From a virus (taxonomy: Duplodnaviria > Heunggongvirae > Uroviricota > Caudoviricetes): a stretch of DNA of 8,613 nt. Below are positions 1 through 8,613 of this stretch, piece by piece. Every line of letters starts with the position of its first letter. Within the stretch, counting starts at the first letter, position 1. The position numbers were made by a program, and so were the translations under genes. Where the stretch lies: IMG/VR virus record IMGVR_UViG_2563366802_000009; one strand, written 5' to 3'. The notes under the pieces are model-generated. The model was not told where the DNA came from. It saw only the letters and a list, made by a program, of their open reading frames with translations, and did no database searches.

Positions 1-561
1 CAGCACGCGGGCCAGCAGCCCCGGTCCTGCGATACCCCGCTCGATGGGCCGTGAAGGCGCGGGGGCCTGCACGATGGCATCGCACTGAGTACAGGCATGC
101 TTTTCACGTACAGTCCGGATAACCCGGAAGGCGCTGCGCATCAGCTCCAGCTGTTCGGCGGCATCCTCACCCAGATAGCTCAGCGAGCCTCCACATTCCG
201 GGCAGCATGACGCTGCCGGCAGCAGCCGTTTTTCATCGCGGGGGAGTGATTCGGGGAACGGTTTGCGGGTGCGGGTTTGACGCAGCGGGCGCTGCACGGC
301 CGGGTCGTCAACCCGACCGGTAAGGGTATCACTTTCTTTCTGAAGTGCCTTCAGGTCAGCTTCCATCTGTGCGATACGACGGGAGACTTTTTCCGAGCGG
401 CTGCCGAAGTTCATCCGGCGCAGCTTATCCAGCTGTGCCTGCAGATGGTCTATTTCGCGTTCACGCTCGTTCAGCTTTTCCTGCAGGGCACGGTTCAGCG
501 CCTCCTGTTCGGCAAGGAGACGTTTCAGTGCATTGATATCGTCAGGAAGTGAGCTGCTCAT
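1..561 (-). CDS. tnpC: IS66-family transposase TnpC, N-terminal 187 codons only (3' end lies beyond window start)
   Basis: Reverse-strand ATG at 561 opens a frame translating MSSSLPDDINALKRLLAEQEALNRALQEKLNEREREIDHLQAQLDKLRRMNFGSRSEK..., through a CxxC..CxxC segment, open to position 1. Absent from the ORF track because no stop lies inside the window. Recognised from memory as the leucine-zipper N-terminus of IS66 TnpC. Confidence 0.8.
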   Translation of the reverse strand, partial: MSSSLPDDINALKRLLAEQEALNRALQEKLNEREREIDHLQAQLDKLRRMNFGSRSEKVSRRIAQMEADLKALQKESDTLTGRVDDPAVQRPLRQTRTRKPFPESLPRDEKRLLPAASCCPECGGSLSYLGEDAAEQLELMRSAFRVIRTVREKHACTQCDAIVQAPAPSRPIERGIAGPGLLARVL

Positions 562-609
562 ACCGGGTATATTACCAGGCTCATTCAGCGTCGACCAGGA
601 TAAAGAGGC

Positions 610-957
610 TTACAACATAGTCAGGGACGTAAGCAGTCTTTTAGGCTGCCGCCAGTCGATACCTTCAAGGAGCATCGCCAGCTGTGCCGGTGTGAGGAAC
701 ACTTTGCCATCCCGGGCTGACGGCCAGGCGAAGCGGCCGCGCTCCAGCCGTTTGGTCAGCAGACACAGTCCATCGCCGGTAGACCAGAGGAGCTTTACCT
801 GACTGCCATTACGCCCACGGAAGATAAAAACGTGACCTGACATCGGATCGTCTTTCAGCGTCGTCTGCACCTTTGCCGCCAGGCCGTTGAAGCCGTTTCT
901 CATATCGGTGATGCCAGCGACCAGCCAGATCTTTGTCCCTGATGGTAATGGGATCAA
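610..957 (-). CDS. tnpB: IS66-family accessory protein TnpB (Orf2)
   Basis: 115 aa ORF (MIPLPSGTKIWLVAGITDMRNGFNGLAAKV...) typical of IS66 Orf2; sits between tnpA and tnpC. Confidence 0.9.
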   Translation of the reverse strand: MIPLPSGTKIWLVAGITDMRNGFNGLAAKVQTTLKDDPMSGHVFIFRGRNGSQVKLLWSTGDGLCLLTKRLERGRFAWPSARDGKVFLTPAQLAMLLEGIDWRQPKRLLTSLTML

Positions 958-1358
958 CGTTTGAGCTCCCGTATCAGCAGGTTCAGGATATTTTCGCTGA
1001 TGGCACCATTCAGACGGAGTGATCCGTGCCGGAACGTCACTTCACAGCTGATATTGAGTGATTCAGGTGTCGCAGCAGCTACAGGTTGTGACCGGGGGGA
1101 GGTTGTAGGGACAACATCTTCGGCATCAAGAGTTATCGGGAGCAGCTCAGGCACGTTGTTTTCTGTTGTTGAAGGAGGACGTAGTTTTCCTTCGCGCCAG
1201 TACTGGCGCCACTTGAACAGCAAATTATCGTTGATCCCATGCTCACGAGCGAGTTGCGCTACGGAGATCTCTGGTCGATGCGAGAGTTCAACCATTTTGA
1301 TTTTGAACTCAACGGGATAATTAGGGCTTTTTTTACGCACTGCGGTTAATGATTTCAT
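954..1358 (-). CDS. tnpA: IS66-family TnpA (Orf1), helix-turn-helix protein
   Basis: 134 aa ORF (MKSLTAVRKKSPNYPVEFKIKMVELSHRPEISVAQLAREHGINDNLLFKWRQ...); its stop overlaps the tnpB start by 4 bp, as is usual in IS66 elements. Confidence 0.9.
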   Translation of the reverse strand: MKSLTAVRKKSPNYPVEFKIKMVELSHRPEISVAQLAREHGINDNLLFKWRQYWREGKLRPPSTTENNVPELLPITLDAEDVVPTTSPRSQPVAAATPESLNISCEVTFRHGSLRLNGAISENILNLLIRELKR

Positions 1359-1517: not shown

Positions 1518-2117
1518 ATGCGTAAAGTTTGTGCAGCCATTTTGTCCGCAGCCATCTGTCTGGCCGTATCCGGTGCGCCTGCATGGGCGTCTGAGCAGCA
1601 GGCCACACTGAGCGCAGGGTATCTTCATGCCCGTACGAACGCTCCCGGCAGCGAAAATCTGAACGGGATTAACGTGAAATACCGTTATGAATTTACGGAC
1701 ACGCTGGGGCTGGTGACGTCATTCAGTTATGCCAATGCCAAAGATGAGCAAAAAACGCATTACAGCGATACCCGCTGGCATGAAGATTCAGTGCGTAACC
1801 GCTGGTTCAGCATGATGGCGGGGCCATCTGTACGCGTGAATGAATGGTTCAGTGCTTATGCGATGGCAGGTGTGGCTTACAGCCGTGTTTCGACGTTCTC
1901 CGGGGATTATCTCCGCGTAACTGACAACAAGGGGAAAACGCACGATGTGCTGACCGGAAGTGATGACGATCGCCACAGCAACACGTCTCTGGCGTGGGGA
2001 GCTAGCGTGCAGTTTAACCCGACCGAATCCGTGGCCATTGATATTGCTTATGAAGGCTCCGGCAGTGGCGACTGGCGCACTGACGGTTTCATCGTGGGTG
2101 TCGGTTATAAATTCTGA
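1518..2117 (+). CDS. lom: Lom outer-membrane protein (Ail/Lom/PagC/OmpX family beta-barrel), a lambdoid moron
   Basis: 199 aa with a signal peptide (MRKVCAAILSAAICLAVSGAPAWA) and C-terminal ...YEGSGSGDWRTDGFIVGVGYKF, near-identical to phage lambda Lom as recalled. GAGAGG Shine-Dalgarno 5 nt upstream of the ATG. Confidence 0.9.
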   Translation: MRKVCAAILSAAICLAVSGAPAWASEQQATLSAGYLHARTNAPGSENLNGINVKYRYEFTDTLGLVTSFSYANAKDEQKTHYSDTRWHEDSVRNRWFSMMAGPSVRVNEWFSAYAMAGVAYSRVSTFSGDYLRVTDNKGKTHDVLTGSDDDRHSNTSLAWGASVQFNPTESVAIDIAYEGSGSGDWRTDGFIVGVGYKF

Positions 2118-2142
2118 TTAGCCAGGTAACACAGTGTTATGA

Positions 2143-2170
2143 CAGCCCGCCGGTTCAGGCGGGCTTTTTT
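2143..2170 (+). terminator. Rho-independent terminator downstream of lom
   Basis: AGCCCGCC-GGTTCA-GGCGGGCT hairpin followed by TTTTTT, 26 bp after the lom stop and 12 bp before the stf start. Confidence 0.6.
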
Positions 2171-2181
2171 GTGGAGTGGAT

Positions 2182-4554
2182 ATGGCAGCAGTAAAAATCT
2201 CAGGTGTGCTGAAAGATGGTGCGGGAAAACCAATACAGAACTGCACTATTCAACTGAAGGCAAAGCGTAACAGCACCACGGTACTGGTGAACACGGTGGC
2301 CTCTGAAAATCCGGATGAAGCCGGGCGTTACAGCATGGATGTTGAGTATGGCCAGTACAGCGTCATCCTGCTGGTTGAAGGTTTTCCGCCTTCACATGCC
2401 GGGACCATTACCGTCTATGAAGGTTCCAGACCAGGTACGCTGAATGATTTTCTTGGTGCCATGACGGAGGATGATGCCCGTCCGGAGGCACTGCGCCGTT
2501 TTGAACTGATGGTGGAAGAAGCAGCACGCAACGCTGAAGCCGCCTCTCAGAGCGCAGCGGCGGCAAAGAAATCCGAAACTGCAGCGGCATCATCGAAGAA
2601 CGCGGCGAAAACCTCAGAAACGAATGCAGCTAATAGTGCACAGGCGGCAGCGACCTCACAGACTGCATCAGCAAACTCCGCGACAGCAGCCAAAAAATCA
2701 GAAACCAACGCGAAAAACAGCGAGACAGCCGCAAAGACGAGCGAAACCAACGCAAAGTCCAGCCAGACGGCAGCGAAAACCAGCGAAACGAATGCCAAAG
2801 CCAGTGAAACTGCGGCAAAAAACAGCCAGGTTGCAGCAGCCCAAAGCGAGAGCGCGGCAGCCGGTTCTGCGACTTCAGCAGCTGGATCAGCAACTGCTGC
2901 GGCTAACAGCCAGAAAGCTGCGAAGACGAGTGAAACTAACGCAAAGTCCAGCCAGACGGCAGCGAAGACCAGCGAAACGAATGCCAAAGCCAGCGAAACT
3001 GCGGCGAAAAACAGCCAGGATGCAGCAGCCCAAAGCGAGAGTGCCGCAGCTGGTTCTGCAAGTGCGGCGGCTTCTTCTGCCACTGCATCAGCCAACAGTC
3101 AAAAAGCAGCAAAAACCAGTGAAACCAACACAAAGGCGAGCGAGACTGCGGCGACTAACTCGGCGAAAGCATCCGCTGCAAGCCAGATGGCTGCAAAAGC
3201 AAGTGAAGACGCAGCCAGAGAGTATGCAAGCCAGGCAGCAGAGCCGTATAAATATGTCTTACAGCCACTGCCTGATGTGTGGATACCGTTTAATGACTCG
3301 ATGGATATGATTACAGGATTTGGCCCGGGATATAAAAAAATAACAGTGCGCGATGATGTGGTCACTATACCATCCGACAAAATTGTCCCGTTTTCCCGCG
3401 CGAGTTCCGCGACCTATATCAATAAGTCCGGCGCTCTTACCATTGCAGAAATTAATGAGCCACGTTTTGAAAAAGAAGGGCTGTTAATTGAAGGGCAGAG
3501 AACAAATTACTTCACAAACTCAAACGCTCCGGAATTGTGGAATAAAAATCCAGGCCTGAAGATAAGCGAGACAAAAACCGATTCCAGGGGTTTTAAATAT
3601 GCAACGTTTACCCCAGAAAAATATTTAGATAGTTCTGGCTCATATGGAATTATATCAGGGGCAGCAGCAAATAAGATAGCGGTAGTCAAAAATGATGCAG
3701 TTACAATATCCTTTAGAGCAAAAGGGGATAATGTAAGATTTGCGGCTAGATTTGATAAAGGGGATTCGCCAGTTGCTGTAGCTGCCATTTTTATTGATAG
3801 CGCCACACTAGATACATTCACGTCTGGAGCAGATGCGTCTAATATTGCTGTGAAAAATGTTGTTCGTGACGGTGAGTGGGTTGCTGTAGAGGCTGTTTAT
3901 AAAGTAACAGACGACTCTACATATATTAACGGCGCCATTCTGATGTCAAACAAACTGGGTGCTAATTTTGATAAGACTAGTTTTATGGATGTAACCACCC
4001 CTCAAATAGAGCTAGGTTCTTGCTTATCATCATTTATTGTCACACCAGGTGTTCCTGCGACAAGGGCGAGTGATATGGTTATTTTTTCAACCAGAAATAA
4101 CATAAGTTCTGTCCCTTTAAGCTGTCTTGTTGAAATACATAAAAATTGGGACTCTACGCCAAATCAGTCCCCACGAATTTTAACCACTATTGGCGTGGCG
4201 ACTAATGATGAACAACTGGTATTTGCTTTCAGGACGCCTACAAGTCCGGATGTAGAACCTTTACCTTATGTTCAGTTTGGAGTGAGATCTGCATATCTTA
4301 GTCCATTTGTGAAGGCCGGGCGCAAAATGATTGCTGGTTTTGTCTGTAATAGCTCGACTGAATTTCGTTGCAGTTGTAATAGTTACCTGTCACCTGTTCA
4401 GACTTCGTCATGGAAGAATACCGGAGCTGCACATGAAATACGTATTGGGGGAACTTCTGCTGGAGGAGAACGTCACTTGTTTGGTCACGTTCGTAACCTG
4501 AGAATATGGCATAAAGAATTAACTGATGCGCAAATGGGGGAGAGTATTAAATGA
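2182..4554 (+). CDS. stf: Side tail fibre protein (Stf-like), mosaic: lambda-like N-terminus, repeat shaft, divergent low-GC C-terminal module
   Basis: N-terminus MAAVKISGVLKDGAGKPIQNCTIQLKAKRNSTTVLVNTVASENPDEAGRYSMDVEYGQYSVILLVEGFPPSHAGTITVYEGSRPGTLNDFLGAMTEDDARPEALRR matches lambda Stf from memory. Ala/Ser/Thr/Lys-rich 14-residue repeats follow (KTSETNAKSSQTAA...). The C-terminal ~520 aa is AT-rich and ends ...GHVRNLRIWHKELTDAQMGE, which resembles the C-terminal strand motif of concanavalin-A-like/LamG jelly-roll domains (inference). Start placed at ATG 2182 (GGAG 5 nt upstream) rather than the track's GTG at 2176. Confidence 0.85.
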   Translation: MAAVKISGVLKDGAGKPIQNCTIQLKAKRNSTTVLVNTVASENPDEAGRYSMDVEYGQYSVILLVEGFPPSHAGTITVYEGSRPGTLNDFLGAMTEDDARPEALRRFELMVEEAARNAEAASQSAAAAKKSETAAASSKNAAKTSETNAANSAQAAATSQTASANSATAAKKSETNAKNSETAAKTSETNAKSSQTAAKTSETNAKASETAAKNSQVAAAQSESAAAGSATSAAGSATAAANSQKAAKTSETNAKSSQTAAKTSETNAKASETAAKNSQDAAAQSESAAAGSASAAASSATASANSQKAAKTSETNTKASETAATNSAKASAASQMAAKASEDAAREYASQAAEPYKYVLQPLPDVWIPFNDSMDMITGFGPGYKKITVRDDVVTIPSDKIVPFSRASSATYINKSGALTIAEINEPRFEKEGLLIEGQRTNYFTNSNAPELWNKNPGLKISETKTDSRGFKYATFTPEKYLDSSGSYGIISGAAANKIAVVKNDAVTISFRAKGDNVRFAARFDKGDSPVAVAAIFIDSATLDTFTSGADASNIAVKNVVRDGEWVAVEAVYKVTDDSTYINGAILMSNKLGANFDKTSFMDVTTPQIELGSCLSSFIVTPGVPATRASDMVIFSTRNNISSVPLSCLVEIHKNWDSTPNQSPRILTTIGVATNDEQLVFAFRTPTSPDVEPLPYVQFGVRSAYLSPFVKAGRKMIAGFVCNSSTEFRCSCNSYLSPVQTSSWKNTGAAHEIRIGGTSAGGERHLFGHVRNLRIWHKELTDAQMGESIK
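2731..3059 (+). repeat. Two ~140 bp direct repeats (2731..2870 and 2920..3059) with a 189 bp period inside the stf shaft region
   Basis: By eye the copies differ at about 10 of 140 positions. The 189 bp offset is 63 codons, so both are in frame, each encoding ...KTSETNAKSSQTAAKTSETNAKASETAAKNSQ(V/D)AAAQSESAAAGSA. Confidence 0.8.
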
Positions 4555-4832
4555 AAGATTTAACACTCAAATTTGCAGACAGGGCCGACTTTTCGGCCTT
4601 TATGGAGAGCATTGGCTATTATGATGACGAGTCGATGCAGGATGATATTCTTATTGACGTGATAGGTAATGTGTACAAAGAAACCGGAGAACTGACTGAA
4701 GATGGCGAACCGGTATGTGTTAAGGAAGACGGATATTTTGTAAACGTGCGCATCATTAATGATGCAAAAAAATCGTCAATATTTGATGAATACGCGGTTG
4801 TAGTTGAACATCAACTTCGTGGCTGGATGTGA
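4551..4832 (+). CDS. Hypothetical small acidic protein (93 aa), translationally coupled to stf
   Basis: Start ATG overlaps the stf stop (ATGA at 4551..4554), with GGGGGAG upstream. About 21 Asp/Glu versus 9 Lys/Arg, net charge roughly -12. AT-rich like the stf 3' half. No family recognised. Confidence 0.55.
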   Translation: MKDLTLKFADRADFSAFMESIGYYDDESMQDDILIDVIGNVYKETGELTEDGEPVCVKEDGYFVNVRIINDAKKSSIFDEYAVVVEHQLRGWM

Positions 4833-4841
4833 GGGAGACAA

Positions 4842-5546
4842 ATGGCTACATCGACAGTAATTCCGGGAGACATCACCACGCTGAAGGGAGATGTCAGTAA
4901 AGCGAAGGAAGATATTTCCTCAATTAACGGTAAAGTGTCAATGCTTCAGACTGATATGACCAGTGCAAAGCAGGATATCAGCTCCAGATACACAAAAACT
5001 GAAGTTGATAATAAGCTGAAAAACAAAGTAGAAGTGAACGATCTGGAAAGTGGTCGTTATGGCGGAGATTTTTATCCACTGACAGGTCGTGAAGCGTTTT
5101 ATTTATGGGGATTGGGCACAACTACAGCGGCGGCAAATCTTTATCTTAATCCTGACCCTGCAATTTCGTCTGTGCTGCGGTCAACATCGTCTATCCGCTA
5201 TAAACATTCAGTAGAGACGATAGATTCAGAGCACGCCGATCTCATTTTCAGGATGCGCCCTGTATGGTACAGGTCGCAATGCGAAAATGACAGGCGTGAC
5301 TGGGGATTCTACGGATTGATTGCCGAGGAAGTAGGAGAAATTGCCCCTCAGTTTGTACACTGGCGACCAGCTAACGAGAATGATGCTCCTGAAGCTATTT
5401 CCAGCAATGGACTTGTTGCCGAAGGTGTAATGTACGAATGTCTGGTTGTTCCACTGATTCACCATATCCAGAAACTGACTGAAAGAGTTGATGAACTTGA
5501 GTCAGAATTAAAGTTGTTATTAACTTCCCGAAGCGATATTAGATAA
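4842..5546 (+). CDS. Small tail-fibre-like protein (234 aa) with a C-terminal peptidase S74-like intramolecular chaperone domain
   Basis: GAGGGAG Shine-Dalgarno 6 nt upstream. N-terminus carries two ~20-residue repeats (LKGDVSKAKEDISSINGKVS / LQTDMTSAKQDISSRYTKTE). The C-terminal half matches the S74 chaperone consensus as recalled: SSIRYK (Ser...Lys at i and i+5), LIFRMRPVWYR, GFYGLIAEEVGEIAPQFV, then YECLVVPLIHHIQKLTERVDELESEL. Confidence 0.7.
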   Translation: MATSTVIPGDITTLKGDVSKAKEDISSINGKVSMLQTDMTSAKQDISSRYTKTEVDNKLKNKVEVNDLESGRYGGDFYPLTGREAFYLWGLGTTTAAANLYLNPDPAISSVLRSTSSIRYKHSVETIDSEHADLIFRMRPVWYRSQCENDRRDWGFYGLIAEEVGEIAPQFVHWRPANENDAPEAISSNGLVAEGVMYECLVVPLIHHIQKLTERVDELESELKLLLTSRSDIR

Positions 5547-5556
5547 AGGAGGAGTA

Positions 5557-5850
5557 ATGGATATAACACCTTTTCTTCATGCGCTTTGTGCTGTGGCTGC
5601 GCAGACACTGGTTGGTCTTTTTACCGGAAACTGGGCTTATGGGGCGATAGCTGGTTGTACGTTCTTCATTGCGCGTGAACACACCCAGGCAGAATATCGC
5701 TGGATTGAAATGTTCGGGCATGGCAAGCGGATTAACATGCCGTGGTGGGGCGGTTTTGATCCGCGTGTTTGGGATGTGGCAAGCCTGATGGATTTTGCTG
5801 TGCCGGTGGTGGCGTGTCTGCTGATCTGGCTGTTGGTTAATCGTGGGTGA
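5557..5850 (+). CDS. Hypothetical small membrane protein (97 aa, 2-3 predicted transmembrane segments)
   Basis: Strong Shine-Dalgarno (AAGGAGGAG) 2-4 nt upstream of the ATG. Hydrophobic stretches at residues ~3-39 and ~71-94 flank a Trp/Gly/Arg-rich loop (RWIEMFGHGKRINMPWWGGFDPRVW). More GC-rich than the two preceding genes. No family recognised. Confidence 0.55.
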   Translation: MDITPFLHALCAVAAQTLVGLFTGNWAYGAIAGCTFFIAREHTQAEYRWIEMFGHGKRINMPWWGGFDPRVWDVASLMDFAVPVVACLLIWLLVNRG

Positions 5851-5860
5851 AAAAAGGTGA

Positions 5861-5980
5861 GCTGTATATGCAACGGAGGAAGAAACCCCGTTGCTGGAAG
5901 CCAGGAAAAAGTATCGGGTGTTGCTGAACCGTGTTGATACGTCAACTGCACAGGATATTGAATGGCCAGCACTGCCGTAG
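5861..5980 (+). pseudogene. tfa: 3' remnant (~40 codons) of a tail fibre assembly gene tfa; no start codon, 5' part missing
   Basis: Frame open 5861..5977 encodes [39 protein letters not shown], matching the conserved C-terminus of lambda-type Tfa (...[31 protein letters not shown]..., recalled). An in-frame TGA lies at 5858..5860. Confidence 0.7.
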
Positions 5981-6077
5981 GGTAAAACATATAAATTCTA
6001 TAATTAGATGTATCTTTCCATTTACGGCAAGGAAGGGGGCTTGGAAGACGTAAAGCATCTCACACCGAGATTATTTT

Positions 6078-6668
6078 TTATATGTCAGGTGTCTGAAGTT
6101 TTGCTTTGGCTCTTAAAATGGTTTGCCGCGAGGTTTTGAATTCCCGGGCAATGGCACTTATACTTACACCTGACTTAATCCGTTCGAATACCACCTGTTT
6201 CTGTTCTTCATTTAACACAGGTGGTCGACCAAAACGTTTCCCTGCGCCCCGGGCTCTTACTATCCCGGAATGAGTGCGTTCAAGTAAAAGGTCTCGTTCA
6301 AATTCAGCGACTGCTGAAATTACTTGCATCATCATTTTTCCTGTTGGACTGGTCAGGTCAATGCCCCCCAATGCTAAGCAATGCACTCTGATACCTGTTT
6401 CGGTCAGTTGTTCCACTGTTTTCCTGATATCCATTGCATTACAACCAAGGCGATCCAATTTTGTCACAATCAATTGATCACCACATTTCAGGCGAGCAAG
6501 CAACCGGTTAAAACCAGGACGCTCACTGGTTGCTGCTGAGCCGCTAATGTGTTCTTCGATTATTTGCTGAGGTTTGATTTTAAAACCTGCACTTTCGATT
6601 TCCCGGCGTTGATTTTCGGTGGTCTGATCCAGCGTTGATATCCGACAGTAAGCAAAAATTCGAGACAT
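6078..6668 (-). CDS. pinR: Serine recombinase (resolvase/invertase family), positional equivalent of Rac PinR
   Basis: 196 aa; N-terminus [20 protein letters not shown] carries the catalytic-serine motif of small serine recombinases, and the C-terminal region reads as a helix-turn-helix ([23 protein letters not shown]). Convergent with the tail-fibre operon, as pin is in Rac/Qin/e14 (recalled). Confidence 0.85.
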
Positions 6669-6984
6669 AGTGAGACTCTATACGAAATTGGTGTTCATAT
6701 CATAATGCATCTCAGAAAATAATTTTGATTATTTTTGTGCATATTTGTATGTACACGTTCGAAAATAAACGAATGCGTATGCAACCCCGTAATTTTGGTG
6801 AGACCCAAAATCGATTTTGTGAAAAATGGCTTTAACTCGGTTTGTTTTTCGAGTTCCGGGCGGACTCAAGGAAGAAGAATAGTGTTGCGTGTTATTTTAA
6901 CCAGATTTCAAGTTGTTTGGTCGTGGAAAAGTGGAGCAAAATGTTGTTAAAGTGGAAAAATGATAAAAAAGTAAGTTTATTATA

Positions 6985-8178: not shown

Positions 8179-8613
<435 letters not shown>

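Follow-up and report, generated by a model that had tools for sequence, protein, structure and literature searches.

What is the role of a peptidase S74 chaperone domain that is encoded in a short gene of its own, instead of at the end of a long phage fibre protein? The question is raised by an open reading frame (ORF) of 234 amino acids (aa) in the viral record IMGVR_UViG_2563366802_000009, whose 8,613 nucleotides (nt), hereafter the window, are the right end of a Rac-type lambdoid prophage of Escherichia coli. A first-pass annotation of this DNA had offered three answers, namely a minimal fibre tip, a trans-acting chaperone for the adjacent side tail fibre (Stf) and a decoy. On the evidence described here, the gene product is probably a small subunit, translated on its own, of a side tail fibre built in two parts. 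Within a mobile host-recognition module of three genes, it would be the shortest of the common versions of the third gene. The minimal tip is therefore the option that we favor, given that the gene occupies the slot of a distal fibre gene, shares an N-terminal motif with the other genes found in that slot and carries a conserved catalytic dyad under purifying selection; the tip role itself we infer. The decoy found no support.

The ORF, located at 4842-5546 on the plus strand, is real and intact. It starts with an ATG codon preceded, 5 nt upstream, by a Shine-Dalgarno-like GGGAG, and encodes a precursor of 26.2 kDa. It stands alone as the first-pass annotation had described, with a start of its own, an stf gene that ends at 4554 and a gene for a 93-aa protein in between. 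The Pfam profile Peptidase_S74 (PF13884) covers residues 116-172 with a score of 27.3 bits (gathering score 22, E 4.5e-6, profile positions 1-57 of 58), and a Foldseek search with the AlphaFold2 (AF2) monomer returned S74 chaperone folds, with the MyRF ICA domain first (7dc3, E 1.4e-4, probability 1.0), followed by 3gud (GA-1) and 3gw6 (endoNF). The assignment of the domain, made originally from the sequence alone, is thus borne out by both profile and fold. Low-scoring PDB hits (T-cell receptor chains, an antibody, P22 gp26) were set aside as owing to chance or to generic similarity between coiled coils. The AF2 monomer displays a mean predicted local distance difference test score (pLDDT) of 58, with values mostly of 65-88 for residues ~130-230 and below 50 for residues 58-126. 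It includes a long C-terminal helix at residues 198-233, is usable solely for the chaperone domain and is uninformative on the mature tip.

The best match among solved structures is LtfA of phage DT57C (8hqz_d), in which S959 and K964 align with S116 and K121 of the window protein. Using an alignment of 20 stand-alone and fused homologues, with identities down to 29%, we found S116, R119 and K121 to be invariant, together with G158, I160, A161, E162 and E163 of the GLIAEEV motif and L205 of the PLIHHI motif. The Ser116/Lys121 pair that the first-pass annotation had placed in the stretch SSIRYK, as well as both motifs that it had singled out, hold up well in this alignment, and the spacing of the pair is as it had given. 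In T5 pb1 the chain is cut between T1263 and S1264, with K1269 as the partner residue, and Ser1264 is the nucleophile that departs with the chaperone domain (PMC4690869). At the sequence level T115-S116....K121 follows the same T-S-x4-K pattern. Considering that the dyad is present and invariant, self-cleavage of the T115-S116 bond by Ser116/Lys121 is predicted, and the computed masses of the products would be 12.4 kDa for the mature chain and 13.8 kDa for the chaperone domain.

Ahead of the predicted cleavage site, the protein opens with a 15-residue motif, M-[AV]-T-x-T-x-I-P-x-D-I-[TK]-x-L-K (MATSTVIPGDITTLK in the window), which is present in seven third-gene proteins spanning four different C-terminal architectures. 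The motif runs into a heptad-patterned helical region, modeled by AF2 as helices 11-49 and 52-60 and corresponding to about six heptads of coiled coil. The two repeats of ~20 residues that had been noticed in this part of the protein are real: they have a period of 21, lie inside the heptad-patterned helix and share 8 of 14 residues (LKGDVSKAKEDISS versus LQTDMTSAKQDISS). The length of the coiled-coil region differs by 7 to ~35 residues among homologues. Between the proposed anchor and the chaperone domain there remain ~55 non-helical residues (61-115), which are conserved and have no domain match, and where the AF2 model is unreliable (pLDDT 31-36). Long Stf proteins have a homologue of this segment ahead of their cleavage site, and among the stand-alone homologues of lambdoid and T1-like phages its identity is 56-71%; it is too conserved for a typical O-antigen-specific tip, and may bind a conserved structure or merely cap the fibre.

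The gene occupies a defined slot in a wider module. Its order, a lectin-tipped Stf or lateral tail fibre (LTF), a gene of 92-93 aa and a third gene, is found in lambdoid, T1-like, Nonagvirus, Dhillonvirus and T5-like phages, and seven annotated phage records share the order seen in the window (PhiR49_1, KarlJaspers, PhiR63_1, JenP2, Tritos, IrisVonRoten and L6jm). In the T1-like phage KarlJaspers, the LTF, the 92-aa gene and a 225-aa S74 gene are, respectively, 41%, 54% and 60% identical to the Stf C-terminal region, the 93-aa protein and the ORF of the window. Among 80 IMG/VR loci anchored on the 93-aa gene, the downstream ORF starts with MATSTVIP in 79 (one MAISTVIP), and these ORFs fall into two main size classes, of 227-234 and 345-346 aa. 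Across all sources, third-gene versions of 221-234, 346-348, 574-576 and 293 aa have the N-terminal motif in common and differ in their C-terminal parts. The 346-348-aa alleles of PhiR63_1, Tritos and JenP2 carry an S74 end with a canonical SDRDLK and resemble the window protein only over the first 20-30 residues, and the 293-aa third gene of Dhillonvirus has the same start and a Phage_tail_C_2 domain, without S74. Other third-gene alleles place 190-450 residues of fibre or receptor-binding sequence ahead of the chaperone domain. A search with the N-terminal motif returned no T5-like phage among the matches listed; BLASTP does find the motif at the start of Gp24 of IrisVonRoten. Four architectures that follow one motif at one and the same genomic position form the pattern usually left by a constant attachment end with exchangeable distal parts. 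The lateral fibres of small siphoviruses have been described as comprising, in some cases, two or more proteins that are related mainly at the far N-terminus (first BASEL paper, PMC8594841).

The pattern of conservation along the module fits a conserved joint between variable parts, as judged from a sequence comparison between the window and PhiR63_1. Identity is 76-100% over Stf residues 1-450, 18-40% over residues 450-750 and 60% in the last 42 Stf residues; it is 80-100% for the 93-aa protein, 85% for the first 20 residues of the third gene, 30% or less for the remainder of that gene, and 90-96% for a 97-aa protein encoded downstream of it. In 69 loci we distinguished six Stf C-terminal clusters and three third-gene clusters, which combine freely: proteins of the 234-aa type accompany every one of the six Stf clusters, and alongside the largest of these both the 234-aa and the 346-aa types occur. 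The third gene is also optional. In Lambda_2G7a and ev243 the order is Stf, 92-aa gene and 97-aa gene, with no third gene in between, and in both phages the Stf C-terminus can be aligned over its full length with that of loci in which a third gene is present. The 4A7 locus has the 92-aa and 97-aa genes, again without a third gene, and shows transposase genes immediately upstream and no intact Stf.

The gene is not rare. Of 5426 complete E. coli genomes 746 contain it (14%, about one in seven), with 740 counted at a coverage of 80% or more, and BL21 is among them. The temperate phages PhiR49_1, IdasGreatGrand and PhiR55_1 carry it at 93-95% identity, and ~50 lytic genomes of T1-like Drexlerviridae carry it at 55-60%. 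Apparently complete S74 proteins of 183-242 aa occur also in unrelated lineages, and the premise of the first-pass annotation that so short an S74 protein is out of the ordinary was overstated. Using 23 distinct alleles of the 234-aa type, we obtained a ratio of nonsynonymous to synonymous substitution rates (dN/dS) of 0.15 overall, with values of 0.15 for residues 1-25, 0.18 for residues 26-115 and 0.12 for the chaperone domain. At the family level the gene is therefore functional and under purifying selection, and the low dN/dS together with its presence in lytic phages leads us to reject the idea of a pseudogene or relic. Its origin may well be different from its present state: the ORF can be aligned over its entire length to the last 237 of the 1385 positions of the fibre profile phrog_3299, and a fused ancestor is plausible because the tip-plus-chaperone module recurs, at 52-59% identity, at the end of long lambdoid Stf proteins. 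Whatever that origin, the separate gene is now maintained.

These observations can be assembled into a mechanism, most steps of which are deduced from homology and gene arrangement. The gene would be transcribed together with stf, as suggested by the tight gene spacing, the lack of a terminator and the lack of an internal promoter signal above chance. Three 26-kDa precursors would then associate through their C-terminal S74 domains (116-234), by homology to K1F endoNF, T5 pb1 and MyRF, and these domains would act in cis, setting the register of, and folding, the segment 61-115 and the coiled coil 11-60. Once the trimer is correctly folded, Ser116/Lys121 would cut the T115-S116 bond and the 13.8-kDa domain would leave. 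The mature stub, three chains of 12.4 kDa, would ride on the virion through the motif at residues 1-16, docked on Stf, on the 93-aa protein or on both; docking through this motif is suggested by the motif being shared, by the conserved gene order and by the published AlphaFold-Multimer model of IrisVonRoten Gp22/Gp24. In the last and least certain step, the stub might serve, next to the lectin domains of Stf, as a second, small tip, be it a binder of a conserved surface structure or a structural end-piece. Attachment, cleavage and receptor of the 234-aa protein are thus all put forward here on sequence and analogy.

Several points weigh against this reading. The mature part is very small, and its ~55-residue segment is conserved, where a typical receptor-binding domain would be hypervariable. 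For residues 58-126 the AF2 monomer cannot be relied on, and the IrisVonRoten Gp22/Gp24 complex that lends support to docking is itself a predicted one. A docking insert was sought by comparing Stf C-termini from loci with and without the third gene, and no obvious difference was seen. In the literature searched we found neither a virion proteomics report for the 234-aa protein nor a study of the short protein. Finally, the copy in the window may not be in use. Its codon 200 (5439-5441) is TGT (Cys), a position that is Arg in 44 of 45 alleles of the 234-aa type and, within the context MYERLVV, in at least 90% of the wider alignment, so that R200C is private to this copy. This substitution and the apparently defective state of the prophage, with IS66 genes upstream of lom and a Rac-type end, make it possible that the window copy is idle.

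The first-pass annotation had also considered a chaperone acting in trans. The N-terminus would bind Stf or LTF chains, the S74 domain would drive their trimerisation and the protein would then be cleaved off, leaving nothing in the virion. The ancestral Tfa is indeed gone from the locus, the 234-aa gene, when present, always lies downstream of the lectin-tipped type of Stf, the mature part has no obvious receptor-binding domain, and the records of KarlJaspers and PeterMerian (BASEL) label the gene 'putative lateral tail fiber chaperone'. We nevertheless hold this explanation to be improbable, because in Lambda_2G7a and ev243 the 92-aa gene and a fully homologous Stf C-terminus persist without any third gene (the 4A7 locus, with transposase genes upstream, also has the 92-aa gene and no third gene); because six Stf clusters share the 234-aa type and one of them accepts the 346-aa type as well; and because the sister alleles that begin in the same way have large domains and are clearly fibres. 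The strictly conserved dyad and the purifying selection on residues 1-115 argue in the same direction. Among the Pfam, PHROG and NCBIfam matches of the 234-aa protein there is no Tfa-type family, and the invariably linked 93-aa gene is a better candidate than the S74 gene for an Stf assembly factor or adaptor. S74 domains are not known to act other than in cis, which also counts against a chaperone for another chain, and a literature search for published tests of trans action gave nothing relevant. A very improbable arrangement is that of a split chaperone, in which the motif would zip onto a set of three Stf chains, either directly or by way of 93-aa protein that they have bound, S74 trimerisation would be passed on in trans and a 12-kDa clamp would be left after self-cleavage. 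Stf would in that case have no trimerisation chaperone of its own, and this would be, if true, the first S74 domain shown to assist the folding of a separate polypeptide.

Closer to the favored two-part fibre, the 234-aa allele could be a stripped-down filler of the distal docking site that adds no specificity, a structural end-piece by analogy to the LtfA/LtfB pair; the fibre module would gain from having that site filled. The segment ahead of the cleavage site is short, and lambdoid and T1-like phages conserve it, the 234-aa type is the commonest allele and pairs with all Stf clusters, and LtfA is apparently unstable without LtfB in DT57C (PMC4728585). Natural phages without the third gene imply, on the other hand, that occupancy of the site is not generally required, and the selection on residues 26-115 (dN/dS 0.18) fits the binding of a conserved ligand equally well, so that we rate the placeholder as unlikely. 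Very hard to credit is a non-functional leftover: a new Stf C-terminus with the 93-aa cassette would have been inserted ahead of what had been the last part of a longer Stf, and would have left that part stranded. It would account for the alignment of the ORF to the end of the phrog_3299 profile and for the module shared with long lambdoid Stf proteins, and there are other recombination scars at the locus; the gene, however, has its own start codon and ribosome-binding site and an N-terminal motif that is absent from the fused versions, and it is intact in hundreds of genomes, compact lytic phage genomes included, under the low dN/dS given above. A short subunit of a two-part side tail fibre remains for us the probable explanation.

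The features of the gene and of its surroundings are given in Table 1.

Table 1. Features of the 234-aa protein and of the neighbouring genes in the window.
Feature	Position	Strand	Basis or remark
234-aa S74 precursor	4842..5546	+	Pfam, PHROG, alignment
Residues 1-16 (MATSTVIPGDITTLKG), N-terminal motif, proposed attachment anchor	4842..4889	+	common to all third-gene alleles
Residues 11-60, heptad-patterned helix with two 21-residue repeats, probable trimeric coiled-coil shaft	4872..5021	+	repeat analysis, AF2
Residues 61-115, few short predicted strands, ending at T115; proposed mature fibre tip	5022..5186	+	precedes the cleavage site
Residues 116-234, S74 intramolecular chaperone (auto-processing) domain	5187..5543	+	Pfam PF13884, Foldseek; 13.8 kDa; C-terminal helix 198-233
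SSIRYK, codons S116-K121, predicted Ser/Lys dyad and predicted scissile bond T115-S116	5187..5204	+	invariance, alignment with LtfA and T5 pb1
stf, 792-aa side tail fibre, proposed proximal fibre	2176..4554	+	phage_tail_N at residues 5-134 (Pfam); GTA_spike_fiber at 437-631 (NCBIfam)
93-aa acidic protein	4551..4832	+	phrog_1361; start overlaps the stf stop (ATGA)
97-aa hydrophobic protein	5557..5850	+	phrog_1443
Tfa-type C-terminal remnant, 36 codons	5870..5980	+	Prokaryotic Genome Annotation Pipeline calls the matching ET210 stretch an incomplete tail fibre assembly protein
pinR-type serine recombinase	6078..6668	-	Pfam Resolvase and HTH_7; pinR in strain ET210; marks the Rac-type prophage end
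YnaE-like gene	between pinR and uspF
uspF	8179-8613	-
lom	1518-2117		downstream of the IS66 genes
IS66-family tnpA/tnpB	610-1358	-	tnpA-like 954-1358, TnpB_IS66 610-957

The four plus-strand genes of the fibre region are spaced by 0-10 nt, with 9 nt between the 93-aa gene and the ORF. No terminator was seen among them and promoter-like sites were not above chance, and for these reasons they most likely form one transcript. Stf itself is built of an N-terminal attachment domain, an Ala/Ser/Thr-rich repeat shaft and a lectin-like C-terminal region of ~430 aa. The shaft repeats, of the AAKTSETNAK type, yield long ORFs in other frames and on the other strand between 2500 and 3300 (for example 2547-3095 on the minus strand and 2624-3310 on the plus strand), which the repeat composition leads us to regard as artefacts.

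The 93-aa protein has no Pfam or NCBIfam match, and its AF2 model is unusable (pLDDT 41), with a shallow alignment of sequences at least 85% identical. A homologue search with this protein gave near-identical E. coli sequences only, among the matches listed. Homologues of its gene are found beside fibre genes in 181 phage records, covering lambdoid, T1-like, Dhillonvirus, Nonagvirus, T5-like and rV5-like phages, siphoviruses and myoviruses alike. This gene constantly accompanies that of the lectin-tipped Stf or LTF and is kept even where the S74 gene is missing. The 97-aa protein is found downstream in lambdoid loci with or without the third gene, and the lytic phage loci that we inspected have no annotated homologue in that place. 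It is probably not a fibre part, and may be a membrane protein expressed by the lysogen, for example in exclusion or conversion. In Lambda_2G7a and 4A7 (loci L088 and L093) a sitABCD manganese/iron ABC transporter operon lies on the opposite strand directly after the fibre module that lacks the S74 gene, as cargo at the same hot spot.

The Tfa remnant shows that a block made up of the Stf C-terminus and the 93-aa, S74 and 97-aa genes replaced an older Stf/Tfa end next to pinR, in keeping with the earlier suggestion that the Stf module had taken the place of Tfa. An invertible fibre segment near pinR was considered and rejected: there are no inverted repeats in 2100-6800, and the fibre genes all lie on one strand. 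With neither inverted repeats nor inverted fibre cassettes nearby, pinR is here an orphan invertase and there is no host-range switch. At the other side of the fibre genes, IS66-family genes (277-1358, minus strand) occupy the place, upstream of lom, where the J gene would be expected, and in the closely related locus of ET210 an IS3 element lies inside lom instead of IS66. The prophage in the window is probably defective.

The gene is an ordinary kind of phage gene. It adds a new short member to the known two-part fibre systems and no new mechanism, and it leaves the view of S74 domains unchanged. The family is already annotated widely and inconsistently, with public records using the conflicting labels 'tail fiber domain-containing protein', 'chaperone of endosialidase' and 'putative lateral tail fiber chaperone', and recognition of the short allele gives a simple annotation rule for such loci. 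The useful results are the shared 15-residue motif, the evidence against the 'chaperone' label and the pointer to the 93-aa gene, which looks worthier of study than the S74 gene. The third-gene motif also marks a natural junction at which a second specificity could be engineered onto lambdoid, T1-like and T5-like fibres, and the gene is at hand in many laboratory T1-like phages besides about one seventh of complete E. coli genomes.

Compared with known systems, the locus shares with lambda Stf/Tfa and Mu S/U its position, after J and lom and, in Rac-like prophages, ahead of a Pin-type recombinase, and the same Stf N-terminal domain. It differs from them in that Tfa has been replaced, with 36 codons left, in that the 93-aa and 234-aa proteins match no Tfa model, and in that there is no invertible segment. 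T5 pb1, the K1F endosialidase (4UW8, 3GW6) and the MyRF ICA domain (7DC3) belong to the same domain family, with Ser and Lys at +5 and, for T5, the same Thr-Ser scissile motif; in these proteins, however, the domain stands at the end of chains of ~1000-1400 aa or of a membrane-bound transcription factor, whereas the pre-cleavage part in the window is 115 aa and the gene is separate.

The branched, L-shaped fibres of DT57C and DT571/2, in which LtfB sits on LtfA, are supported genetically (Golomidova 2016, PMC4728585; Ayala 2023, PMC10713586). LtfB is a full-length receptor-binding fibre with a genetically demonstrated role in host range, unlike the short window protein, and our comparison with it was made through the LtfA matches and published descriptions of LtfB. 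Similarity to LtfA is restricted to the chaperone region, apart from two weak coiled-coil matches (residues 19-72 against LtfA 459-532; i-Evalue 7.9 and 710). The arrangement is nevertheless alike, since LtfB is encoded downstream of the first fibre, has its own C-terminal self-cleaving S74 domain and carries a conserved N-terminal segment that is thought to attach it.

The closest likeness is with the T5-like phage IrisVonRoten (Bas32), for which an AlphaFold-Multimer prediction places a 'T-shaped' distal fibre, Gp24, on the proximal fibre Gp22 (Humolli et al. 2025, PMC11990801), whose C-terminal domain is described as galectin-like (PMC11990801). The proximal fibre has a T5-type N-terminus there, in contrast to the lambda Stf-type attachment of the window Stf, and Gp24, with 574 aa, carries Gp12-like and T5-like receptor-binding domains where the window protein has a coiled coil and ~55 residues. 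The gene order Gp22-Gp23-Gp24 is nonetheless that of the window: Gp22 is 39% identical to Stf over 745 aligned positions, the whole C-terminal region included, Gp23 is 38% identical to the 93-aa protein, and Gp24 starts with MVTKTVIPTDITKLK, the same motif, and ends in an S74 domain 26% identical to that of the window protein.

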